A model generated the notes under the pieces. That model did no database searches, had not been told where the DNA came from, and saw nothing but the letters and a program-made list of their open reading frames with translations. From the NCBI GenBank assembly GCA_965197745.1, contig CBDANS010000006.1, forward strand, positions 32,001 through 96,000: a stretch of DNA of 64,000 nt, written 5' to 3'. The stretch's first letter is position 1. The number at the start of each line of letters is the position of its first letter. This DNA comes from Opitutales bacterium. GTDB taxonomy: Bacteria > Verrucomicrobiota > Verrucomicrobiia > Opitutales > PNEW01. Shown piece by piece: positions 32,961-45,054 of this stretch. The position numbers and the translations under genes were made by a program.

Positions 32961-33169
32961 ACGTTTAAGGCATTAAATTGAGTTTTAAATCTCAGTAAAA
33001 TATTTTTATAAAATTGATTTTACTAATTATTAACAGCTTTCACCGTGTTCAACTCAGCGAGCGGTCATTTGAATCATCTTGATTGTCAGTCCGTTTTTAT
33101 TAGGATATTGGGTGTTGGTTAATTTTAGTTTCCCGAGGTAGAACATCCTAAATGTAAAGGGTATTCAAC

Positions 33170-33550
33170 ATGACACATGAAGAACACTTTGAATTGGCAA
33201 ACGGTCAGACAATAATGGAACAGGGAGATGAAGGCCGCGGCTTTTTTATCCTCGAATCTGGATCACTGGAAGTTATTAAAGATGACGTCCTCCTGAGCAC
33301 GCTCATGTACCCGGGCACCATCTTTGGCGAAATGAGTGACATTCTGGGAAAGCCAAGGACCTGCACGGTTAAGGCCAAGAAAGCGTGTAAGATTACTCAT
33401 GTGACAACCACTAACATGAGTGAATTCATCCAGGATTATCCCCAGGTCGGGGTGAAAATCATAAAAACGCTTGCCAGTCGCCTTGATCGAGCTACCAATA
33501 AATTATCGGAAATGGCCATGGAGTCCCCTTTGTGGTCGGTACGTAAATAA
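33170..33550 (+). CDS. Stand-alone cyclic-nucleotide-binding domain protein
   Basis: EQGDEG, FFILESG and FGEMS...PRTCTV; no HTH. Confidence 0.85.
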   Translation: MTHEEHFELANGQTIMEQGDEGRGFFILESGSLEVIKDDVLLSTLMYPGTIFGEMSDILGKPRTCTVKAKKACKITHVTTTNMSEFIQDYPQVGVKIIKTLASRLDRATNKLSEMAMESPLWSVRK

Positions 33551-33560
33551 TTTCACCTTC

Positions 33561-34064
33561 ATGCTTGTCGCGGATAAAATTTTTCTAATTATGGTCTTAA
33601 CGATGACCATCTCCAGTGAAGACGCAGAGCCCATTGCCGTTGGCGCAGATGCACCCGCTATCACATCCCTTGCTGAAAACGGATCTCCTATAGATCTTAC
33701 CGAGGTCTACGATAAAGGACCCACGCTTGTTTATTTTTATCCCAAGGCCGACACTCCCGGTTGCACCGCACAGTCCTGTAATCTGCGCGACGCTTATGAG
33801 AATCTGCAGGATGCCGGCATTACGGTTATCGGAGTAAGTGCCGATACACCGGAAGAGCAAAAGGCTTTTAAGGATAAATTCCAGCTTCCTTTTATCCTAC
33901 TCGCTGATTCCAAGGGAGAGGTTATCGAAGCTTTTGGCGTGCCGCGCAATAACGGTAAAGCGAAACGCCAGACGTTCCTGATCAAGGGCGGCAAAGTAGT
34001 CTGGCGTGATCTGCAAGCCGAACCCAAAACTCAGGCAGAAGACGCGCTGAACAACCTGCCCTGA
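33561..34064 (+). CDS. bcp: Peroxiredoxin (BCP/PrxQ), probably exported
   Basis: YFYPKADTPGCTAQSC, GVSAD and RQTF; hydrophobic N-terminus from ATG 33561. Confidence 0.88.
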   Translation: MLVADKIFLIMVLTMTISSEDAEPIAVGADAPAITSLAENGSPIDLTEVYDKGPTLVYFYPKADTPGCTAQSCNLRDAYENLQDAGITVIGVSADTPEEQKAFKDKFQLPFILLADSKGEVIEAFGVPRNNGKAKRQTFLIKGGKVVWRDLQAEPKTQAEDALNNLP

Positions 34065-34082
34065 GATAACAATTTCAGGATA

Positions 34083-34430
34083 TCAACCGGGCGCGTTTTC
34101 ACCGATCAACCAGACTCGCCGGATGAGGTCCTTCTTCACTTCATATAAGGCAATATTGTAAGTGACAGGAGATTCCGGATAGCCGGTAATTTTTTCATGT
34201 AAGACCGTGTAATCACCCTGGCTTACAGTATTTAAAATGGCGCAATTTAAATCGGGCGATACTCTGAATTTATTAGCGTATATAGTGCGCACTGATTCCA
34301 GTCCCTGAGCTATTACCTCTCCTCCCGGTAATTGAAAAACTTCTATCTCATCACTGAAACAGTCGAGAAAAGCGCCTAGATCTCTGGCGTTAAATGCACG
34401 CACATGGTCATCAATAACATTTTTCGGCAT
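34083..34430 (-). CDS. SnoaL/NTF2-like protein
   Basis: AFNARDLGAFLDCFSDE and YEVKKDLIRRVW. Confidence 0.8.
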   Translation of the reverse strand: MPKNVIDDHVRAFNARDLGAFLDCFSDEIEVFQLPGGEVIAQGLESVRTIYANKFRVSPDLNCAILNTVSQGDYTVLHEKITGYPESPVTYNIALYEVKKDLIRRVWLIGENAPG

Positions 34431-34522
34431 AAGAATTACTGAATAGAAAATCGTGAGATCGACTTGCGCGGGAAAGATAAATTCGAGCGCTACGATTTGT
34501 CCATCGCAACGGTAATAAAATA

Positions 34523-36931
34523 TTAAAGTGTAATATTTAAGCCAACACGCGCCCTCCAGGAACTGAAAATCCGATCAGAGGGGCGCAGCGTATCACCTTC
34601 TAAACTGTTCTGCACCTGTTCCGAGATATTGAAAAAATCGGCGAATATACTCATATTAGGATGAATTCGATACTTCGTTGAAAAATTGATAATGGTCTCA
34701 TGATCGAGATATTCATCGGCATTGGTGGTTTCCGCTACATTATCAAGCGAGCGGCTTTGGAAATTTAAACTGATGCGCGTCTTCAATTTTCCGATTTCAT
34801 TGAGCAGGGCAACTTCCAGCATGTGCGCTGCTCTCTCAGGTAAAAGCAGTGTTTCACCCGGTCGCTTAACCGTAAATGCCTGGGAATCAGAATAAATGTA
34901 AAAAATAGAGGCTGTTGCATTGCCTAATGCTTGGGGGAACAGCGGAACATTTCGGTTCCAACCAAATTCCAATCCCCACAATTGGGCTTCTTCCCCATTT
35001 TCCGGCCGTCTGAACTTGAAGCCGTCGAGGGTTCCTCCCTCAACTAAAAATTCACCTTGAAAGAAAAAATTCTTGATATCCTTGTAATACCACGCCGCAG
35101 AAAAATTACCGGTCCAGGGGTTTCTGACATCTGCGGTCACGATAAAATTAGTATATTCCGTGGACTTCAAGTTCGGGTTGCCCTCTCGGATGAATTCACT
35201 GCTGCTAAATATTTGCCGATAGGGAACAAGATCAAAGTAATTGGGCCGCGCCAGGGTTTCGAAAGCAGAGGCTCTCAAATTAATCTGTTCGTTCAGTAAA
35301 TAAACAAATTCCAGCGCAAAATAGGTATTATCGTATTCATTCACATTCGAGACGGGAATCGTTTCCACGTATTCATCTTCACCGTCCACTTCTTCGGTAA
35401 TTACCGTATTGCCATCGGTTTCAATTTGCGTTTTCTCAAAGCGAAATCCGGCATTTAAAGACCATCGTGGAGCTTTAATGCGCTGCATCACATAATAGCT
35501 CTGTACCGATTCGAAAGACCTGAAATTATTGGGATCACTTTCGATATGGGTACGGCCAAAATCCAACTCATAATTATCGAAGTTATCCGCGAAAAACGTG
35601 CGAGAAAGAGAGGGGTCTGCTCCTCTCCCCAACCGATAGTGGTCTTCGGCAATCAAATCCGGTTCTTCTGTAACCACCGAATCGCTTAAGAGGTAAGTGC
35701 CATTATAAACTTCATAAATAAACCTTTCGTCTTGACTTGTTCGTTCTTTTTGCCGGTAGAGACTACCGGCAAAGATTTCCATTTCCGTTTTTGAGAAATT
35801 AAACCGTTTATGGAAATGAATATCTCCCGCGTAATCTTCATCCACTGTAAGCGAACTTCGATCGCGCATTTCGCGAAAGGACAATTCGTCCGGGTCATAA
35901 ATATCTATATCACTATGATTAGTAACTTGAGGAAAGTGGATATCTTCTCGATTGTAAGACAAATCCACACCCTCGCGTCGAAATTCGACCTTGAAAAGTT
36001 CAGGACGGCTGCGCTCGTAGTTTGAATAATACATACCATACTCCAAACCCCAGTCTTCCGCTTCAATTTTGCCGCCACCCTCGAAACGGTAGATATCAGT
36101 GCGCTCTGGTTCATCGCGCATTTCACGTTTTACACTCGCGCCGCGGGAAAAAGCAGATAAGTCTGATACAGCTTCGTATTCACCATCGGAAAACCGCATT
36201 TCCAGACGTTGCGCAATGTCACTGTCTTCGGTTTGTCTAAGATCAGTTTTGAAATAGAGGGTGTGATTATCGCTCAACGCTCGTTCAAGGACTCCTTTAA
36301 AACTTTTGCGCCGTGAATGGACCATACGCCTGCCGGTATTCAATCGTTCAATCACATTCTGTTCTCCAACATCTGTATCGATGGTACCCCATCGTGTAAA
36401 AATTCGCTCAAAGGCAAGTTCCGCCGCCAGGTCATCGAGGTAAAACGATAAGGCCCAACGATGGTCTCTGCCGAAAATCTGGGACATTGAGACATAGCCC
36501 TGCCAAAGGCCAGCGTCTGACAGTTTCCCATAGTGATATGAGGCTTCACTCTTTATCCTTAAGGTTGGACCATCTAATATGCCTCCGGATGGCAATTTAC
36601 CGTGGTAATTTACCCCTTCGGCATCCGCGTTGGCAAAAGACACCACTCCAACACCTCCCACCGATTGATATTCGGAAGCCATTGGATTCTGCTTCTGCAG
36701 CACTCGCTGGCGATCACGGGGGTTGGGCGCCAGACCGCCACTCACCGCCGGGAATACTACCATGCTGACTTTTTTTTCAGCTGGTTTTGCTTCAACGGAA
36801 TTAACCGACTCAACGGTCGCTTCAGGACTCAGACTCGTCTGGGCAAAACCTGAAGAGAAAAAAAAGGATAAATAAAATATCCCCAGGCTGAATCCTACTG
36901 TCGCGGCCGACGCACTGTATTTAATTGGCAC
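34523..36931 (-). CDS. TonB-dependent receptor-like beta-barrel (short or atypical plug)
   Basis: GFRFEKT, LARPNYFDL, GNPNLK, YYKDIKNF, GLEF and NIS...VGLNITL. Confidence 0.8.
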   Translation of the reverse strand: MPIKYSASAATVGFSLGIFYLSFFFSSGFAQTSLSPEATVESVNSVEAKPAEKKVSMVVFPAVSGGLAPNPRDRQRVLQKQNPMASEYQSVGGVGVVSFANADAEGVNYHGKLPSGGILDGPTLRIKSEASYHYGKLSDAGLWQGYVSMSQIFGRDHRWALSFYLDDLAAELAFERIFTRWGTIDTDVGEQNVIERLNTGRRMVHSRRKSFKGVLERALSDNHTLYFKTDLRQTEDSDIAQRLEMRFSDGEYEAVSDLSAFSRGASVKREMRDEPERTDIYRFEGGGKIEAEDWGLEYGMYYSNYERSRPELFKVEFRREGVDLSYNREDIHFPQVTNHSDIDIYDPDELSFREMRDRSSLTVDEDYAGDIHFHKRFNFSKTEMEIFAGSLYRQKERTSQDERFIYEVYNGTYLLSDSVVTEEPDLIAEDHYRLGRGADPSLSRTFFADNFDNYELDFGRTHIESDPNNFRSFESVQSYYVMQRIKAPRWSLNAGFRFEKTQIETDGNTVITEEVDGEDEYVETIPVSNVNEYDNTYFALEFVYLLNEQINLRASAFETLARPNYFDLVPYRQIFSSSEFIREGNPNLKSTEYTNFIVTADVRNPWTGNFSAAWYYKDIKNFFFQGEFLVEGGTLDGFKFRRPENGEEAQLWGLEFGWNRNVPLFPQALGNATASIFYIYSDSQAFTVKRPGETLLLPERAAHMLEVALLNEIGKLKTRISLNFQSRSLDNVAETTNADEYLDHETIINFSTKYRIHPNMSIFADFFNISEQVQNSLEGDTLRPSDRIFSSWRARVGLNITL

Positions 36932-37221
36932 GCACTATAATATGTAATTTCGCGTCAAAGTTGGCAATAGTAAACCTAAAAGATAAGAATACGTAATCCT
37001 TATCATAAATTTTTTTTTCAAATAATCTTAATTATCCAACTCGTGCCCTATAGATTTTCAGAATAATCCTGAAAATAGAGTATTCACAGTTTGTGCTTAC
37101 AACCGTAAAATGCATGATAAGCTGATGCCAGAGATGCGTCCTTGTTGAGCCCTGGTATCGATGACTATAGCGCGGTCTTCAGTTAATATTCAGGCACTAC
37201 CCGGATACTGGAATTACCTGT

Positions 37222-37617
37222 CTATTCTATAACAATCTGTCCTATCATCATCAGCTTATGAAAAGTACAGTAATAAGTATAAGTCCCTTTTTTATCAGGA
37301 ACAGAGATGGTAAAACGCTCAAACTCTCCATAGGACAATACTGCCGTCTGGATGTCCAAACCCTCTATGACCAGGTCATGGCGGATTCCTGCATCTTTAT
37401 TTTGAAACAAAATTGAGATTTTTTCTCCAACATGGAAGGTGAAGGTCGGATTTAACTCACCCTCAATATTCTGAGCAGAGGAAGAAAAGCTCATATTCTC
37501 GGCCACTATGATGACTTGACGTGGCAATTCCTTATCCTGCAGAAAGGTAACAAATAAGGCAAAAGCGCCCGCAATAATAACGAGTAATAAAATACTGATC
37601 AGTCCAACACTTTTCAT
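37222..37617 (-). CDS. Membrane-anchored cupredoxin (type-1 Cu)
   Basis: N-terminal TM; HDL ... YYCTFHKLMM supplies H, C, H, M ligands. Confidence 0.85.
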   Translation of the reverse strand: MKSVGLISILLLVIIAGAFALFVTFLQDKELPRQVIIVAENMSFSSSAQNIEGELNPTFTFHVGEKISILFQNKDAGIRHDLVIEGLDIQTAVLSYGEFERFTISVPDKKGTYTYYCTFHKLMMIGQIVIE

Positions 37618-37657
37618 TTTTTATAGCTGAATTTAAAATACATTTATCTAAAACCGA

Positions 37658-38833
37658 TTATGCTGCGCCCACCAGCAGACCCGTTCCGTACATGAGAAGG
37701 TACCCGATGAGTAAGCCTAAAAGATTTAGGGGTTGCAGATTTTCCGATCTGGATTGAGTCCCGACAATCGCCCCAATAACCTGGACAATCGCTCCGGAGC
37801 CAACTCCTAAAAATAAAATTGCCCAGAGATGGGAATAGGTAAATGCGCCGATCCAACATCCCAGTATCGTCGGCACACCGGCAAGCGCTCCAAGGCAAAC
37901 GAGGAATGGGATATTTACTTTTTCCTTAAGTATCGGTGAAACAATAGCGATCCCCTCGGTAGCGTTATGGATGGTAAAGCCCGCAACGAGCAATGCGCCT
38001 AAAGTAAATTCGCCAAGGACATAAGCTGAGCCGATGGCAAGACCTTCCCCCATGTTATGAAGGCCAATCCCGAGAGCGATGAGCCAGGCTATACTGTCCG
38101 CAGACCTTACCCCTCCATTACTATCCGGAGCCCGAGCTGAAATGCCTTGTAGGAAAAGATAAGCCCCCACCAGGCCCAGTATTAATAAAGCTTTTCCGTG
38201 ATATACGGAGGGTAGCATCTCGGCGACTTCCAATCCTTCTTCCACTGCGTCGACAACAAGAAAAGCAAGTAGGCCAACCGTAAAATATAAAAAGAATCCC
38301 AACGTTTTTCTCCCTAAGCGACGGAGAAATGGAAACCATGCAATCCCCAGAGCTACGGGTATCACCCCTACATATATCCCCAAAAGCGCGAACCGTCCAA
38401 AAGCAGCAGGTGTCGGTTCAGGGGTTAAAGATGCAACTTCAATTTCGTAGACAAAAGTTAGCCCCGTTGAAGAAAGGAGATTTATCTCAACCGGTTCACC
38501 AAGATTCCAGGGAAAGGGAATTGTCACGCGCGCTCGTTCCAGCGGTTTCAAAGTACGCTTTGGCGAAACCCCGTGTTGCCAGAACGCACCGCGAACCATC
38601 ACTTGAGCAAGAGTACAGGGGTCGGGGCCGGAGTTGACGATATCCAAATAGATAACGTCCTCTGCTAACGAATGTCTCAAAACGTGGAGTTCTTCGACAG
38701 GAGGCAGGTCTGATTGGAAAATAGCCAGGGGCCCCTTCCGAAAGAGGGCAAAAATTACGATCCCGAGGAGAAGTAAGGGGACGAGTGCGTAGACAATCGT
38801 CGCCATTGACAGTTTACCTTCTTGTTTAGTCAT
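37658..38833 (-). CDS. ZIP-family divalent metal permease with N-terminal extracytoplasmic domain
   Basis: Two ZIP signatures, LHNMGEG and IHNATEG. ATG 38833 overlaps the MCO stop (ATGACTAA). Confidence 0.88.
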   Translation of the reverse strand: MTKQEGKLSMATIVYALVPLLLLGIVIFALFRKGPLAIFQSDLPPVEELHVLRHSLAEDVIYLDIVNSGPDPCTLAQVMVRGAFWQHGVSPKRTLKPLERARVTIPFPWNLGEPVEINLLSSTGLTFVYEIEVASLTPEPTPAAFGRFALLGIYVGVIPVALGIAWFPFLRRLGRKTLGFFLYFTVGLLAFLVVDAVEEGLEVAEMLPSVYHGKALLILGLVGAYLFLQGISARAPDSNGGVRSADSIAWLIALGIGLHNMGEGLAIGSAYVLGEFTLGALLVAGFTIHNATEGIAIVSPILKEKVNIPFLVCLGALAGVPTILGCWIGAFTYSHLWAILFLGVGSGAIVQVIGAIVGTQSRSENLQPLNLLGLLIGYLLMYGTGLLVGAA

Positions 38834-39857
38834 TGCGGACCCTTTCCCTGGGAAGAACGCGGAATAAGCCCATCCAACCCCGCTCAGCAAACTCGGTCTT
38901 GTGACCGTGAAACATGAAATCTCCCGTAAAAGGAAATTTTACTTCTACTATCCCTCGTTCTCCCTGCCCGAGTATTACCGTATCCGTAAAATCGCGCGGA
39001 TTTTTTTTTGTTCCCGTGGGATAGTAATCAAAAAACGTGGCATGGATGTGGAATGAATTGATCATGTCGAATTCTAGAACATTCCCAAGGTAGATCCGGA
39101 CAAGCTCACCCTGTTTTACCTCTATCGGATTCCTCTGATAATGAAAGGCGACGGTGTTCACTCCATAAATTTCATTCTCTTCATCAAAGTTTGGATCAAA
39201 ACCGTTCATCATCATGTAGAGTTCGCGCGCGGGTGGGCGTCCTTCCTTGGGATCTACTATCCAGAACCCATAAAGCCCGTTGTGGATGTGTTGTGTAAGC
39301 GGTGTGGCGTGACAATGGTATAGGTGAACGCCGACCGGATCCGCATTAAATTCGTAAATAAAAGTTCCTCCAGGGGGAACCAATTGTTTTAGCATGGCCC
39401 CATCCATTCTCGCCTCGTGAAACCCGTGAAAATGCATTGAGTGTGGTCGGTCTCCCAAGTTAATGAAGGTAATTTTTATTCGCTCGCCCTCAGTGGCGCG
39501 AAGCGTGGGTCCGGGGACATCCCCATTGTATGTCCACGCGGGGAAAAAAATTCCCGGGGCAATCTCGATTTCCTTATTGACGGCATGGATCTCGAAAGAT
39601 CGCAGGGTGCGACCATCGGGGAGTTGAGTTACTTTCCCCTCCATATAATTGTCTAAATAGCGATCGGGATCGAGCGCTTGCGAGGTTACCTCGCCCACAG
39701 TTCCATTGCGAAAGGAAGTAAGGTCCAAACCATCGAGTCCCCGAAGTGCCTCCTTCTCCTCCCTGTCTAAAGAAGATACGGAATATGCCATATAAGCGGC
39801 CCCGATGAGTGCGATGGAACCTGAAAATATAAATAGTAAACTGCGCCAAGTATTCAT
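38826..39857 (-). CDS. Two-domain multicopper oxidase (type C-like; T1 site in domain 1)
   Basis: WTYNG..PGP, HSMHFHG, YHCH-X6-H-X4-L, SFHIH and FHGH; N-terminal TM anchor. Confidence 0.88.
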   Translation of the reverse strand: MNTWRSLLFIFSGSIALIGAAYMAYSVSSLDREEKEALRGLDGLDLTSFRNGTVGEVTSQALDPDRYLDNYMEGKVTQLPDGRTLRSFEIHAVNKEIEIAPGIFFPAWTYNGDVPGPTLRATEGERIKITFINLGDRPHSMHFHGFHEARMDGAMLKQLVPPGGTFIYEFNADPVGVHLYHCHATPLTQHIHNGLYGFWIVDPKEGRPPARELYMMMNGFDPNFDEENEIYGVNTVAFHYQRNPIEVKQGELVRIYLGNVLEFDMINSFHIHATFFDYYPTGTKKNPRDFTDTVILGQGERGIVEVKFPFTGDFMFHGHKTEFAERGWMGLFRVLPRERVRND

Positions 39858-39859
39858 AA

Positions 39860-41143
39860 TTAAAAAATGAATTGAAAACGTATGCCAAAGACAATGGCAT
39901 CTCTCGCTCCTTCGTGAGGGTTAAATATAAATTGCAGATCCGGTTGTAATGAAAACCAGGGGGTAATCATTCCCTGATAGGTTATTTCAAGCACACTTTC
40001 AGTGCTGGATACACCCGGGTTGGCGCTTACATAATCATTACTGAAATCGGTGTGAAGAAATCCAATTCCCAAAATGTCATCAGAGCGCAGCCCAAAAGGC
40101 CCTGCCCAATTAACGCCGAAGTCTGTATAATACGATACTATGTTTTTTTCTTCTTCAGGGCTATAGCCCACGCGCCACCAGCCGGTTAAAGATTCTGATA
40201 GTTCCTGGTTGATGGCAAAATATATACTCGAATTGCCATCCACGGGTTCATCGGTATTAAAATCAATAAATTCTTCCCCACTGTGATAAAACCCGCCGAC
40301 TTTAAAAACACCCTGACGTCCTAAAATATGGGACGTCACCCCCGCTTCAAAGATATAAAGAACCCCCTCAACTCCTCCTAAATTAATATGTAGTCCATCG
40401 TCATTGATTGCCTCGTCTCCAAGATTCCCATCGTAAATGCCAAACTGAACATAGGTATTATTCATCGGCTCAGCATAGAACAAAGCACCAAGTGCTCCTA
40501 TCGGCCATATCGGTGCAGCGTTGTTAAGCGATTGTGTGGGCAGCGGACCAAAACCACTGTTGATAAATAGCCCCGTAGAATCGGCTATCATAAAATCATC
40601 ATCGAGATCAATAAGCCCAACCCTGAATGACATCGATCCATCCATTAATTCCTGCTCATACCAGGCTTGAAAAAGACGCGTCGTATTGTAAGCGACAATA
40701 TTGCTTAAAGCATTGATATCACCAGCAAACACACTTGGGTCATCCCCGTGTATCGATTGACCATGGAGATGGATCATCCCGCCAGGCAGTCCGATTAAAT
40801 TTTCCAGGTAAAAATCGGCTCCGAAGTCAGCCAAACCCTGCCACGCAGTTCCGGTATTATTACCCCCGCTTATGACACTGAAAAACTCACCGGAATACCC
40901 CAGGAAGGGTTGTATCCCCTTCTCATCATTTGCCTTTTCGCTACTTAACCAATCCGTCGTTTCATAGGCCTTCGTTTCACTTCCTGCTCCTTCAAGCAGA
41001 GCACTCTCTTGAGCTCTTGAGTTAAGCGCAAAAGTGCACACGGGTATCAGTAATACGGTTAAAAAACTCCTTCCCAGAAAACACAGGTTCTCTCCGGGTG
41101 ACCCTTTTCTGATCCTCTGTATTAATCTTCGATAGGTATCCAT
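39860..41143 (-). CDS. OprB-family porin
   Basis: SNI, RLFQAWYEQ, FRVGLIDLDDDF, FINSGFG, EITYQ...LQPDLQ and terminal Phe. Confidence 0.88.
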   Translation of the reverse strand: MDTYRRLIQRIRKGSPGENLCFLGRSFLTVLLIPVCTFALNSRAQESALLEGAGSETKAYETTDWLSSEKANDEKGIQPFLGYSGEFFSVISGGNNTGTAWQGLADFGADFYLENLIGLPGGMIHLHGQSIHGDDPSVFAGDINALSNIVAYNTTRLFQAWYEQELMDGSMSFRVGLIDLDDDFMIADSTGLFINSGFGPLPTQSLNNAAPIWPIGALGALFYAEPMNNTYVQFGIYDGNLGDEAINDDGLHINLGGVEGVLYIFEAGVTSHILGRQGVFKVGGFYHSGEEFIDFNTDEPVDGNSSIYFAINQELSESLTGWWRVGYSPEEEKNIVSYYTDFGVNWAGPFGLRSDDILGIGFLHTDFSNDYVSANPGVSSTESVLEITYQGMITPWFSLQPDLQFIFNPHEGARDAIVFGIRFQFIF

Positions 41144-41196
41144 TGATTTATGAGTGGAATGGGATGGGAATCCTTTTTTAGTTATGGGTCAAGCAA

Positions 41197-41236
41197 ATTT
41201 TGTAGAATTAAAATAATAATTTTGAGTTGTCTAAAT
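41197..41236. promoter_or_regulatory. Possible DtxR/MntR operator (two imperfect AT-rich inverted repeats)
   Basis: ATTTT-gtagaatt-AAAAT and TTTgagttgtCTAAA lie between the divergent oprB and regulator genes; weak match in AT-rich DNA. Confidence 0.3.
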
Positions 41237-41305
41237 AAGCAATTAAGGACATTAAGTTTGATCTAAAGCGATAAAAATCATAATAAAGGCTTAGAGGAAC
41301 CATTC

Positions 41306-41962
41306 ATGGCGACGAGCACCGTTGAAGATTACATCAAGCAGATATATCTGGAACAGATAGAAAATAAGGCTGGGCCCGTATCCATGGGGCGCGTGGCCAA
41401 TTCTCTGGGCGTCGTTCCCGGGACAGCCACAACGATGATGAAATCGCTCGCCGATTCAGAACTGGTGGACTACGAACCGCGGGTGGGAGTACGATTAACG
41501 GAAGCCGGTGAAGAACTGGCACTGCAGATGTTGCGGCGTCATCGTCTAATTGAACTCTTCCTCGTGGAAACGCTGGGCCTTGACTGGTCTGAGATCCACG
41601 AAGAGGCAGAAAGATTGGAGCATGCCATTTCCGATCGTGTATTGGAACAATTAGACGCATTTCTCGGGTACCCAAAAGTTGATCCACATGGCGATCCCAT
41701 CCCCACTGATTCCGGTGTATTAAGCCAGGAGCAATTAAAGAATTTATGTGAATGTGCGCTTAATCAGCAACTGCGCATTTCCCGGATCACCGACCAGTCT
41801 TCCCTCTTTCTACAATTTATAAATAGGACCGGGCTCAAGCCGGGAGTGGAACTTACGATTGAAGAACGTGACCCCGCTGCTGACGCCATAACGATTCAAT
41901 TTTCGGATGGAAAAAGTCTCACCGTTGGCACTATCGCGGGCGAAAAAATTCTCGTGAAATAA
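41306..41962 (+). CDS. DtxR/MntR-family metal-dependent regulator with FeoA/SH3 C-terminal domain
   Basis: VEDYIKQIY, RRHRLIELFL, IHEEAERLEH and DPHGDPIP. Confidence 0.93.
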   Translation: MATSTVEDYIKQIYLEQIENKAGPVSMGRVANSLGVVPGTATTMMKSLADSELVDYEPRVGVRLTEAGEELALQMLRRHRLIELFLVETLGLDWSEIHEEAERLEHAISDRVLEQLDAFLGYPKVDPHGDPIPTDSGVLSQEQLKNLCECALNQQLRISRITDQSSLFLQFINRTGLKPGVELTIEERDPAADAITIQFSDGKSLTVGTIAGEKILVK

Positions 41963-41984
41963 AATGGGCGCAGTGAGAGCTGCG

Positions 41985-42497
41985 TTAATTCTTTTTAATT
42001 GAATGCGCCGCGAGTTGTTTAAATTCGTTTATTTTATCACGGTATTGAGCCGCGTCTTCATAGTGTTCACTGGACACTGCGCGCTCCAGTTGTGATTCCA
42101 AATGTTTTATGCGATCGTTGAGAAGATTTTCGGCAATTGCTTTTTCTGGAATCTTCCCCAGGTGACGATACCCGGCGTGCATTTTTTTCATCAAGGGATT
42201 GAGCAAGCCACTGAACGTTTTGTAACATTGAGGACAACCTAACCGTCCCGATTTTTCAAATTCAGTTTGTGAACAACCACAATCCTCACAGCGCAGTACA
42301 TTTAAATCCAGAATGATAGTCGAATCGTCTTCGATATTTCCGAGGCCGAGCAAATCGCAACTGGAAGGATGTAAAATGCTGGCTTTTTCAGCACAGGTCG
42401 GGCAATAGCTCTCGGTGGTTAATTCACAACCCAGCACCGTTGATACATGTATAGTTGCCCTTTCATCACACTCTACACATTTTACTTCTTTCGACAT
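41985..42497 (-). CDS. McsA-like CxxC/UVR-domain protein
   Basis: Four CxxC motifs, GRLGCPQCY, HLGKIP and C-terminal UVR EHYEDAAQYRD. Confidence 0.85.
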   Translation of the reverse strand: MSKEVKCVECDERATIHVSTVLGCELTTESYCPTCAEKASILHPSSCDLLGLGNIEDDSTIILDLNVLRCEDCGCSQTEFEKSGRLGCPQCYKTFSGLLNPLMKKMHAGYRHLGKIPEKAIAENLLNDRIKHLESQLERAVSSEHYEDAAQYRDKINEFKQLAAHSIKKN

Positions 42498-42723
42498 ACT
42501 TTATTAAATAAATCGCTTAAAACTTAAATGCCAATGAACCGGTTGTCTAATTAATACCAGATTTTATCAATATTAATTTAGAGCATAATGTTCCAGCATA
42601 TTCGAGAGAATAGTTTAAAAATATCAGTGGCCTTTTCAGATTAAGATAACGAATGGGGATGGTGCGCGCTATATGATTGATCCCGATTTTTAAAATACGA
42701 GTCGGATAATTCTGATTAATTTA

Positions 42724-43644
42724 TTATAAATTCCCGCGATCATTTGAACGTTTATCATTTACAAGTGTTCCGCTGTGGAGAATTCCCTGGTCCATGACTC
42801 TGTCTCTCCAGGAAACGGACGCATCGAAGATTTTCTCATTGGTATCGACCGTAGATACGAGAACACCCGCTTTATTACGGGGCAGCATTCCAGTGATCAT
42901 CCCATCAGCCCTGACGAAAAAACCAGGGAAAGCGGATTCTTTCGCCGATGTATTATTACAACTGATCCAGACATAATTATTGGCCGCGTAAGCTTGCATT
43001 GTGGGTGGCGCTAAAAGACCGGAGGTAACCGTATATCCTTTTACTTTTCTTACCCGCGGGCCAAAATAATTTTGAACCGACTTCCAAAATCTGGCACTGT
43101 AATGACCTATGTGGTAGGAGTGAAACATAAGCTTTACCCCTCTCCTTTTATACTCTCGATAAAGTTCCTGGTAGCGCATGTCATGGCATATTAATGCTCC
43201 ACACTTCATCCCTTTAATCGTAAAAACGCTGAAACGCTCACCCGAACTGTAATGCGCCAGATCTTCCGTATTCTCAGATTTTGCGCCCACACAGAATAAT
43301 TTATCATAGCGATCAACAATACTACCCCGGTCGTTTATAATATATAAACTGTTATGGGGTTTATGCTTTCCTGTCAGTCGATGGGTCGAACCGAGTATTA
43401 CCCACAGCTTTAATTCGCGCGCCAGTTTGAGTACCTTCTTACTGCAGATAGTGAGTAAATCCCAATCAAAATTATCATAAGATTTAAATTCTGATCCGGC
43501 ATAACCACTAAGACAAAGCTCAGAAAAATGAGCAACATCTGCGCCCTCATTTTTGGCTTTATGCATTTGTCGCAATACATAGTGAGTGTTACGCTCTATG
43601 TCCCGATCCACGGGAAACTGGCAGGTTGCGACAACAAGCTTCAT
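42724..43644 (-). CDS. Carbon-nitrogen hydrolase (nitrilase superfamily)
   Basis: E-K-C triad: FSELCLSG, YDKL, ICHDMR. Confidence 0.88.
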   Translation of the reverse strand: MKLVVATCQFPVDRDIERNTHYVLRQMHKAKNEGADVAHFSELCLSGYAGSEFKSYDNFDWDLLTICSKKVLKLARELKLWVILGSTHRLTGKHKPHNSLYIINDRGSIVDRYDKLFCVGAKSENTEDLAHYSSGERFSVFTIKGMKCGALICHDMRYQELYREYKRRGVKLMFHSYHIGHYSARFWKSVQNYFGPRVRKVKGYTVTSGLLAPPTMQAYAANNYVWISCNNTSAKESAFPGFFVRADGMITGMLPRNKAGVLVSTVDTNEKIFDASVSWRDRVMDQGILHSGTLVNDKRSNDRGNL

Positions 43645-43713
43645 AATGCCCCTTCACATGAATGTAGGATCATAGGTGATAATTGATACTAAGTAGAAAA
43701 ATATTTTCCCTTT

Positions 43714-45054
43714 TCATTGGACCTCAATGGCAGCCTGATGCATAGCCTCTATTAACCCGTCGACATGGCTCTCATCCATGGCCAGGGACAGGCTATTCAT
43801 GGCCAGGGTATGAGAAAGAAAATAACCCTGCTTTAATAGTGAATGAAAAACCAGGTGTGTTATCTCCGCGTCATTAGTGGCTATATTTCGGTATTTGTTG
43901 GCTTCTTTATCGGTAAAATAAATACTGAATACGGAACCGATGCCTACCACTTGCGCTTTTATACCGGCACCCTCAAGGGATTTCCTTAAACCTCTGAGCA
44001 ACCGGTCACCCAATCCGTTAAGACGGGTATAGGCCTCTGGCCTCAACTGCTTAAGGGTCGCTAATCCTGCCACCATTACAATGGGATGCGCGCTAAAAGT
44101 ACCACTTTGAAAAAAGCCTGTCGGCCCCGAAGAGTTATCGAAAAGATCCATAATATCCGCGCGTCCTCCAAATGCGCCAGCGGGAAACCCACCCCCCACC
44201 AATTTACCAAAAGTCGTCAAGTCAGGGGAAATGGCGTAAGATTCCTGAAGCCCCCCATAGCCTTCGCGAAAACCGACGATTTCATCAAATATGAGAAGCA
44301 CATTGTTTTTACGGGTGATTTCACGGACCGCCTGGACAAAACTTTTGTCCAGGGTCATGAGCCCGGCCTTGGGGTCGAATATGACGCAGGCTAATTCATC
44401 CCGAATTTTTTCGATCAGGTCCTCTACCGAGGACACATCATTGTAGGGAAGCACAACAACTTCCTCCGCGGCGTGCGGAGAAGCCCCACCGGCACTGGCA
44501 ATTGAAAGAGGACTGTTTTCGGGACCCGCTTGATCCGGGGGCGGGGCTACGCTGACTTCGACAACGTCATGGCTTCCATGATAACCGCCTTCGAATTTAG
44601 CAATTTTTGAGCGCTTACTGAACCCCCGTGCCAGTCGAATCGCGTGTAATGTCGCTTCCGTTCCTGAGTTGCAAAACCGAATCCGATCTACAGATTTCAC
44701 CCGGCGGGTCATTTCCTCTGCCAATTCTGCCTCGACCCCCGCAGGCGCACCCAGCGCGATACCCCGTTTCATCTGCTTATCGACAGCCGTTAAGACTGCA
44801 GGATGATTATGGCCTAATATTTGAGTGGTATGATGGCAGGCAAAATCAACAAACTTTCTCCCGTCTAAATCGAAGAGGTGACACCCCTCACCTCTCTTCA
44901 TGGTAAGAGGATAAGGGGCATAAAAGTAGGCGCCCTTAGCTCCCCCTGGCATGGACGCCAATGTTCGTTCGAAATACTCCTGTGACTTCGGGCTCCCTTC
45001 GCGATAGCTGTCTTCCAATGAACGCTTGAGTTCCATTACCGTTGAATTACTCAT
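43714..45054 (-). CDS. Class III PLP aminotransferase (GSA-aminomutase-like paralog)
   Basis: NSGTEAT, FEGGYHG, FDEIVGFR, TFGKLVGGGFP and SGTF. Confidence 0.88.
   Translation of the reverse strand: MSNSTVMELKRSLEDSYREGSPKSQEYFERTLASMPGGAKGAYFYAPYPLTMKRGEGCHLFDLDGRKFVDFACHHTTQILGHNHPAVLTAVDKQMKRGIALGAPAGVEAELAEEMTRRVKSVDRIRFCNSGTEATLHAIRLARGFSKRSKIAKFEGGYHGSHDVVEVSVAPPPDQAGPENSPLSIASAGGASPHAAEEVVVLPYNDVSSVEDLIEKIRDELACVIFDPKAGLMTLDKSFVQAVREITRKNNVLLIFDEIVGFREGYGGLQESYAISPDLTTFGKLVGGGFPAGAFGGRADIMDLFDNSSGPTGFFQSGTFSAHPIVMVAGLATLKQLRPEAYTRLNGLGDRLLRGLRKSLEGAGIKAQVVGIGSVFSIYFTDKEANKYRNIATNDAEITHLVFHSLLKQGYFLSHTLAMNSLSLAMDESHVDGLIEAMHQAAIEVQ

Follow-up and report, generated by a model that had tools for sequence, protein, structure and literature searches.

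A multicopper oxidase-ZIP permease module beside a manganese-type DtxR-family regulator in an Opitutales bacterium: a candidate metal-import operon

Introduction

The genetic coupling of a copper oxidase, or of a cupredoxin protein, to a metal-uptake permease is a feature of the Fet3p-Ftr1p and EfeUOB systems, and a locus with a similar coupling, in which the permease belongs to the ZIP family, is described here from an Opitutales bacterium. It lies in a 64,000-nt stretch of assembly GCA_965197745.1 (contig CBDANS010000006.1, positions 32,001 to 96,000 of the forward strand; this whole stretch is referred to as the window) and consists of genes for an OprB-family porin, a multicopper oxidase (MCO), a ZIP permease and a small cupredoxin, divergent from a gene for a DtxR-family regulator. 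The comparison of related loci indicates that the five genes are a lineage-specific extension of a very widespread MCO-ZIP module. The reading preferred here, which is regarded as possible but somewhat short of probable, is that the genes form a metal-import operon under a manganese (Mn)-type DtxR-family repressor, the core of which would be a periplasmic type-C MCO translationally coupled to a specialised ZIP.

The locus differs from Fet3p-Ftr1p and EfeUOB in that its permease is a ZIP and not Ftr1 or EfeU, and in that its MCO is of a two-domain, trimeric type rather than a three-domain one. The type 1 (T1) copper site of Fet3p has an axial Leu, and so does that of the window MCO. The Fet3p-Ftr1p scheme of oxidation followed by Fe3+ transport does not carry over directly, since divalent ions are the expected cargo of a ZIP. 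Having no Ftr1/EfeU permease, the locus falls outside the Fet3p-Ftr1p/EfeUOB class; its working may be similar.

The core pair has its closest described relative in ammonia-oxidising archaea. According to the available portions of Reyes 2020 (PMC7785015), these archaea keep a two-domain oxidase, MCO1, beside a ZIP permease, the axial T1 ligand of MCO1 is Leu, the protein is reported from Thaumarchaeota only, and copper uptake in the manner of Fet3p is offered as a hypothesis awaiting validation; the copper-uptake reading is repeated in the available text of PMC7819960. So far as these texts go, the pair had been noted only in ammonia-oxidising archaea, its role being left open and copper uptake assumed. 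Literature searches returned neither a characterised counterpart of the locus, in bacteria or elsewhere, nor a published connection with Mn. The two genes are now seen to form a near-obligate unit that occurs in at least 580 species genomes, and the Mn-type DtxR regulators, the shared operator-like palindrome and the Nramp gene that sometimes accompanies it lead to a testable alternative, namely Mn import with a redox partner, so that a very common uncharacterised transporter type is given a concrete hypothesis. Culturable carriers include Paenibacillus baekrokdamisoli KCTC 33723, Croceifilum oryzae DSM 46876 and Nitrososphaera viennensis, and the version in the window, with its dedicated porin and blue copper protein, shows how the core has been extended in a diderm cell.

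Distribution and conservation of the MCO-ZIP module

The pair was followed through 122 loci, obtained after pooling and de-duplication from many bacterial phyla and from archaea. Neighbours were detected by iterated profile searches on stop-to-stop open reading frames (ORFs) in flanks of 4 to 6 kb, and because of this flank length and of some short contigs the counts given below for regulator, cupredoxin, Nramp and porin genes are lower bounds. In 117 of the 122 loci (90/90 among the first 90 collected) the gene immediately upstream of the ZIP is the MCO; in four of the other five a contig edge lies at the ZIP, and in the fifth, L160, the MCO is about 860 nt upstream. In the ten close loci recovered by a ZIP search the order MCO-ZIP-cupredoxin was found in 10/10. 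The adjacency supports the view that MCO and ZIP are a real functional unit, and the pairwise identities of the two proteins are correlated (r = 0.85 for 4950 pairs from 100 loci), as expected for adjacent co-inherited genes.

The other components are less constant. A DtxR-family regulator was detected nearby in 60/122 loci, a cupredoxin in 27/122, an Nramp gene in the same cluster (Pfam match at 6.2e-142) in 11/122, spread over several phyla and Woesearchaeota, and a linked OprB porin in 3/122, all of them Verrucomicrobia, which makes the five-part form lineage-specific. An earlier note on this DNA had presented a complete five-part route from the outer membrane to the cytoplasm; as a conserved system this did not survive, given the counts for porin and cupredoxin. 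The co-conservation of MCO and ZIP on which it had relied was upheld by the neighbourhood survey, and the regulator that it had named as a partner proved to be a frequent neighbour.

A ZIP of this type is present in at least about 580 species genomes (two profile scans confirmed 581/588 and 585/588 candidate stretches), among them Gemmatimonadota, Acidobacteriota, Chloroflexota, Bacillota, Armatimonadota, NC10, Poribacteria, groups of the candidate phyla radiation, the PVC (Planctomycetes-Verrucomicrobia-Chlamydiae) group with Planctomycetota and Verrucomicrobiota, and, besides the ammonia oxidisers, the archaeal Woesearchaeota, Thermoplasmatales and Haloferacaceae. A quick maximum-likelihood tree of the ZIP groups the window with two Opitutales relatives (support 99), inside an 11-row clade shared with Acidobacteriota and Planctomycetota (support 100), which itself lies inside an 18-row clade (support 97) with a cupredoxin in 17/18 rows; the cupredoxin-bearing loci thus fall mostly in one clade. 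Three other Verrucomicrobia are placed far from the window, and among 301 sampled Verrucomicrobiota genomes only the window's own carries the full-length ZIP type, so the module is patchy in the phylum. This distribution suggests that the module may have been acquired horizontally.

Recurrent gene "families" beside the module in Gemmatimonadota were all dropped: those examined proved to be ordinary neighbours (3-hydroxyacyl-CoA dehydrogenase, a hydrolase, an ABC ATPase and others), one, to judge by its overlapping coordinates, is an antisense shadow ORF of such a gene, and for several more Pfam gave no match.

Homology with the archaeal pair was checked in five ammonia-oxidiser genomes picked through amoA-primer matches. 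A window-type ZIP with its N-terminal domain (N-domain) was found in 5/5, at full length in four (E 1e-109 to 1e-119, the best alignment covering profile positions 3-392 of 393) and in two pieces in the fifth (E 7.7e-59 and 4.9e-51). The MCO is directly upstream of it in four genomes (E 1e-103 to 1e-107) and is present in pieces, with E down to 3.4e-88, in the fifth, where a short DtxR-like gene follows the ZIP. By homology, therefore, the window's pair is the bacterial counterpart of archaeal MCO1-ZIP, and such pairs extend beyond the archaea; the mention of MCO and ZIP pairs in archaea, given as unverified in the earlier note, was correct. Besides the homologous genes, the two share the axial Leu at T1 and an upstream palindrome of the TTAG-N8-CTAA type. 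They differ in that the window adds a porin and a cupredoxin and adjoins a full-length regulator with a FeoA-like domain, and whereas the literature, in its available parts, has the pair as a copper-uptake system of Thaumarchaeota only, it occurs here in hundreds of bacterial genomes. In one Nitrososphaeraceae genome (L285/L286, G004:C5:60190-61462) the ZIP homologue occupies two ORFs, one with the N-domain and one with the core from about residue 232, and may be split or frameshifted.

The ZIP permease and its extra domain

Taken alone, the window ZIP matches the Pfam family Zip (PF02535) at 9.8e-07 and 28.7 bits, under the cut-off of 35.1 bits, but most of its homologues have a precomputed PF02535 match, and a profile of 15 family members aligns with the solved BbZIP (5tsa) at E 3.8e-10 over positions 142-381, that is, the whole core of eight transmembrane helices (TMs). 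The motifs HNMGEG at residue 259 and HNATEG at residue 289 lie in TM4 and TM5, and H259, N260, E263, H289, N290 and E293 are invariant in 15/15 family members; in the profile the corresponding HNLGEG and HNATEG align with the transport-site motifs HNLPEG and QDVPEG of BbZIP. A ZIP with such canonical H-N-E/H-N-E sites should transport divalent ions. The eight-TM core and the HNxxEG motifs of TM4 and TM5 are shared with BbZIP and ZupT, the GufA-like ZIPs, whereas BbZIP lacks two parts of the window protein, the added N-terminal helix and a conserved beta-sandwich of 110 residues that is predicted to be periplasmic.

This strongly conserved domain occupies approximately residues 36-146, between the added N-terminal hydrophobic helix and TM1, and corresponds to the extracytoplasmic domain of about 120 residues that the sequence had earlier been thought to hold. 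It was modelled confidently as an eight-strand beta-sandwich (predicted local distance difference test score, pLDDT, 91.7). The N-terminus of an eight-TM ZIP faces outward, and by homology with such ZIPs the domain should be periplasmic. Its nearest fold is that of the archaeal protein FlaF (Z 11.2, root mean square deviation 1.6 over 88 residues), followed by FlaG and archaellins. PCuAC copper chaperones also matched, at Z 7.0 to 7.8, a range which the fold-search tool rates as common, and assignment of the domain to that group was rejected because the conserved His/Met copper-binding motif is absent and the likeness is confined to fold similarity at this level. The invariant residues are N32, G34, W50, W74 and A99; none is a His, Met or Cys, and for this reason a docking role seems more likely than metal binding. 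When three copies of the soluble domain of the MCO were combined with the ZIP N-domain in a complex prediction the score was 0.69, compared with 0.58 for a single control, a difference that speaks neither for binding nor against it.

The oxidase, the cupredoxin and the porin

The window MCO matches Cu-oxidase_3 (1.8e-24, residues 106-205) and Cu-oxidase_2 (2.6e-27, residues 212-336) in Pfam. Its T1 ligands H139, C182 and H190 with axial L195, and the eight His of the four trinuclear-cluster HxH pairs (H142/H144, H181/H183, H270/H272 and H317/H319), are invariant in an alignment of 102/102 ZIP-linked MCOs. Invariant acidic residues occur in the MCO as well, for instance in an NGFD-x-NFD-x-ENE stretch. 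Domain 2 has HGH without Cys, so that the T1 site is confined to the N-terminal domain; the ligand arrangement read earlier from the letters alone, with all four HxH pairs, a single T1 site in domain 1 and a Cys-free domain 2, is thus borne out across the family. A T1 site in the N-terminal domain is, in the available text of PMC13151041, the definition of type C among two-domain MCOs, and the window MCO is assigned to type C on this ground.

The closest solved relatives are 3gdc (6.8e-105) and 7rab (4.6e-97), both of which carry only the name "multicopper oxidase" and for neither of which do we know of a physiological substrate. From its homology to them we infer a homotrimer with the cluster at the subunit interfaces. 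Literature searches found no paper naming PDB 7rab, and in the partial texts consulted 3gdc was met in two Rhodococcus papers only. Copper nitrite reductase chains labelled NirK are next in similarity; NirK, however, has a three-His type 2 site whereas the window MCO has the full eight-His trinuclear cluster. A likeness lies in the gene next to the window MCO: its product, a small blue copper protein, calls to mind pseudoazurin and azurin, the electron donors of NirK.

A twin-arginine (Tat-like) motif precedes the hydrophobic segment in 67/102 of the ZIP-linked MCOs (among L001-L162 and L281-L284), compared with 0/11 in the clade of the window, itself included, where the N-terminus is more hydrophobic and anchor-like. 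The N-terminal hydrophobic segments of the window MCO and cupredoxin each fit either a cleaved signal or an anchor. The cupredoxin matches Cupredoxin_1 (2.4e-08) and Copper-bind (1.8e-05) and has the complete His/Cys/His/Met set of T1 ligands, H80, C117, H120 and M123, in a C-x2-H-x2-M loop, which is kept across the aligned family except in one truncated row. The porin matches OprB (PF04966) with 165.7 bits and 2.6e-48 over residues 103-427, covering model positions 8-372 of 372.

The regulator and its candidate operator

The regulator matches Fe_dep_repr_C (4e-33), Fe_dep_repress (2.8e-11) and FeoA (3.3e-10) in Pfam, and its best NCBIfam match is a Thermus-type MntR model, at 167 bits and under the cut-off of 350 bits. 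The nearest solved relatives are 5zr4, 8pvt, SloR and ScaR, the last two of which are Mn-responsive. At the positions of Met10 and Cys102 in DtxR the window regulator carries D8 and E102, and a replacement of these two residues by Asp and Glu is said to mark a Mn sensor, a rule attributed to Guedon and Helmann in 2003. Across 42 regulators (that of the window and 41 from the loci) Asp occupies position 8 in 38 and Asn in 4, Glu occupies position 102 in 37 and Asp in 5, and H79, E83, E105 and H106 are invariant, while the Met/Cys pair of the iron-sensing DtxR/IdeR occurs in 0/42. By this reported rule, all 42 regulators carry a Mn-type and not an iron-type signature.

The 162-nt spacer between the regulator and the porin shares blocks with the Opitutales relatives L001 and L002, among them a TTGACC element. 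An inverted-repeat finder gave no repeat of at least 8 nt in this spacer, and the candidate operator, an imperfect palindrome at 41220-41235, was picked up only by comparison across loci; at the aligned position L001 has a perfect palindrome, TTTGATTAATCAAA. The motif TTTAGGC-NN-GCCTAAA, with at least 11/14 positions matching, was found in 19/46 upstream regions against 0.44 in shuffles (maximum 2 in 200) and 0/45 ZIP-coding controls, and the exact form TTTWG-N6-CWAAA in 13/46 such regions from related loci, compared with 0.08 in shuffles, an enrichment that is somewhat inflated in that definition and counting of the motif used one set of regions. In 462 kb of loci 14/16 exact sites lie within 150 nt of the edge of an MCO or regulator gene, and the window holds two, that in the spacer and another inside an ORF. 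In the archaeal loci L281, L283 and L284, upstream of the MCO, two or three tandem 19-bp units of the type AAATTTAGCCTAGGCTAA (TTAG-N8-CTAA) stand just before a TATA-like element. On this evidence the palindrome at 41220-41235 is a candidate operator of the regulator.

The Mn regulons of MntR, ScaR and SloR (MntR-MntH, MntABC) resemble the locus in having a DtxR-family regulator whose selectivity positions hold Asp and Glu and an AT-rich palindrome upstream of a divalent-metal importer, and the likeness extends to the Nramp genes of the 11 clusters. The difference is that the putative importer of the window is an oxidase-coupled ZIP.

The motif has 38 sites in the window's own genome, 11 of them outside ORFs of at least 120 aa, and no wider regulon could be defined from them in that genome. 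One of these sites, TTTTGGAAGATCAAAA at G000:C5:109564, falls between the divergent genes priA and a Fur-family member and is the only other one beside a metalloregulator gene, probably by chance.

Which metal would be imported?

The genome of the window is 92% complete. It holds one DtxR-family gene, one ZIP and one OprB porin, which are those of the window, together with four Fur-family genes; at this completeness no ZnuA-type binding protein and no canonical MntH or MntABC was found, and Nramp gave weak matches only (42.8 and 32.3 bits). The Mn-type residues of the regulators, the upstream palindrome, the co-location with Nramp and this inventory together make Mn the leading candidate, ahead of iron or copper. 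Of the undivided iron, manganese or copper route in the earlier note the Mn part now leads, and the analogy with Fet3/Ftr1 meets a chemical difficulty, as a ZIP should carry divalent ions; iron-type regulators number 0/42.

If the locus is a Mn-import operon, the Mn-loaded repressor would shut it, and at Mn(II) scarcity the repressor would leave the operator and porin, MCO, ZIP and cupredoxin would be made. In this Opitutales lineage the ion would cross the outer membrane by the porin, and Mn2+ would be carried on to the cytoplasm by the ZIP, though other divalent ions may pass too. The MCO would act at the periplasmic face of the ZIP, probably docked on the beta-sandwich domain, where with O2 it could oxidise competing or poisoning redox-active species such as Fe2+ or Cu+, or alternatively the organic ligands that hold the metal, and the cupredoxin would relay electrons to the T1 site. 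The role given to the MCO is the weakest step of this scheme. A more general form of it, speculative and doubtful, is that MCO-ZIP represents a widespread class of oxidase-gated ZIP importers in which an O2-reducing MCO, docked on the permease's own periplasmic domain, would serve as a redox selectivity filter, oxidising Fe2+ and Cu+ at the transporter mouth so that only Mn2+ enters in Mn starvation; if this were true, the copper-uptake interpretation of the pair of ammonia-oxidising archaea would be wrong.

Several observations weigh against Mn import. There is no obvious job for an oxidase in the import of Mn2+, and the gatekeeper role is conjecture. Some DtxR-family members with Mn-type residues are also iron-responsive, and no regulator was seen within the flanks in 62/122 loci. 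The window site is imperfect, the other ten non-ORF sites of its genome flank unrelated genes (PriA/Fur-family, TruB, Tgt/NrdR, MnmE and others), and the circularity in the counting of the motif bears on the same point. A full Nramp is present in 4/5 other carrier genomes, so that the module does not simply stand in for MntH and has no exclusivity. Lastly, in the available text of PMC7785015 MCO1 and ZIP of Nitrososphaera viennensis rise modestly under copper limitation, with log2 fold changes of 0.81 and 1.33.

This induction, together with the proposal of copper uptake (PMC7785015 and PMC7819960, in their available parts), is the principal support for copper acquisition, in which the MCO would oxidise Cu+ to Cu2+ or strip copper from ligands and the ZIP would import Cu2+ for copper enzymes. 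The homology of the window pair to MCO1-ZIP extends that argument to the present locus, Cu2+ is divalent and suits ZIP chemistry, and the ZIP N-domain resembles PCuAC chaperones in fold. Those fold matches are, however, in the range that is rated common, and the domain lacks any invariant His, Met or Cys; the linked regulators are of the DtxR family with Mn-type residues in 42/42, no copper sensor is found among the recurrent neighbours, Nramp is co-located in 11/122 loci, and an apparatus costing approximately 13 copper atoms per MCO trimer plus cupredoxin would be awkward under copper starvation. Copper acquisition is accordingly considered unlikely. Iron uptake by an oxidase-permease couple like Fet3p-Ftr1p or EfeUOB, with the ZIP replacing Ftr1, had been the leading idea of the earlier note. 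It draws on the iron sensors that the DtxR family includes, the FeoA-like domain of the regulator, the axial Leu shared with Fet3p, the neighbouring TonB-dependent-receptor-like gene and the suggestion, in the available text of PMC9723733, that marine ammonia-oxidising archaea depend on ZIPs for Fe2+. It is distinctly improbable when set against the lack of the DtxR/IdeR Met/Cys pair in every one of the 42 regulators, the four Fur-family genes that the genome has for iron control, and an operon whose only permease is the ZIP, with none of the Ftr1/EfeU type; a ferroxidase would, moreover, turn Fe2+, the expected substrate of the ZIP, into Fe3+.

Two further explanations were weighed. Axial-Leu, three-coordinate T1 sites are found in many laccases, and the high-potential three-coordinate site with axial Leu in 102/102 MCOs, along with the near-obligate adjacency and translational coupling, would suit a laccase that destroys periplasmic phenolic or catecholate ligands, the freed ion then entering through a general divalent-metal ZIP; relatives of 3gdc are also discussed as laccase-like oxidases in the partial texts consulted. 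But no substrate site was found in the MCO, no genes of phenolic or siderophore metabolism recur in the neighbourhoods and the cupredoxin is left without explanation, and such an arrangement seems quite improbable. It might also be supposed that the locus serves metal oxidation or detoxification rather than import, with the ZIP releasing or positioning Mn2+ or Fe2+ for the MCO, or with the MCO as a co-transcribed stress oxidase. Some multicopper oxidases do oxidise Mn(II), but characterised ZIPs import into the cytoplasm, and the Nramp genes of the shared clusters encode importers. Efflux genes are among those that MntR-family proteins can activate (PMC9240420, citing Huang 2017, in the text available), but the palindromes stand directly upstream of the operons, beside the TATA-like element in archaea, as repression predicts, and adjacency in 117/122 loci goes beyond chance co-transcription, all of which renders this explanation very improbable.

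Organisation of the locus and neighbouring genes

The features are collected in Table 1. The porin/MCO junction is a 2-nt gap (39858-39859), the MCO stop overlaps the ZIP start by 8 nt (ATGACTAA, 38826-38833), and 40 nt (37618-37657) separate ZIP and cupredoxin; the ORF list, the sequence and Pfam agree with the original description of four minus-strand genes, three close junctions and a divergent DtxR/MntR regulator. The ZIP product starting from the ATG at 38833 is the form present in the protein database.

Table 1. Features of the locus and its flanks (positions in the window)
Feature	Position	Strand	Basis
DtxR-family metalloregulator, Mn type by residues (218 aa; helix-turn-helix, metal-binding/dimerisation and C-terminal FeoA/SH3-like domains)	41306..41962	+	Pfam, ORF list
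Divergent control region between porin operon and regulator, 162 nt	41144..41305	.	Sequence, locus comparison
Candidate operator TTTTGAGTTGTCTAAA, imperfect TTTWG-N6-CWAAA palindrome in the divergent spacer	41220..41235	.	Comparison with related loci
OprB-family outer-membrane porin, 427 aa, first gene of the operon	39860..41143	-	Pfam OprB 2.6e-48
Type-C two-domain MCO, 343 aa, N-terminal hydrophobic segment	38826..39857	-	Pfam, solved relatives
ZIP permease, 391 aa, start ATG at 38833	37658..38833	-	Family profile, motifs
Predicted periplasmic beta-sandwich domain of ZIP	38396-38728	-	Structure model
Small T1 (blue) cupredoxin, 131 aa, N-terminal hydrophobic segment	37222..37617	-	Pfam, ligand set
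TonB-dependent-receptor-like barrel, 802 aa, 290 nt downstream of cupredoxin; unit membership uncertain	34523..36931	-	Pfam TonB_dep_Rec_b-barrel 1.3e-23
SnoaL-like protein, after the receptor-like gene	34083-34430	-	Pfam
Cys-rich 170-aa protein with C-terminal UVR motif, convergent with regulator	41985-42497	-	Pfam UVR 1.3e-10

An Rfam scan of 33000-44000 at E up to 0.1 gave no RNA family match, and in scans for sigma-70 promoters and terminators promoters were no commoner than chance and nothing informative emerged on the ends of the operon. Pfam gives no Plug domain match for the TonB-dependent-receptor-like barrel, and synteny of its gene is confined to two close relatives, L001 and L002. 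The SnoaL-like gene is also syntenic in these two, and unrelated SnoaL-like genes lie near the module in seven Gemmatimonadota loci. A hairpin at 41967-41986, between the regulator and the UVR-motif gene, is terminator-like on both strands.

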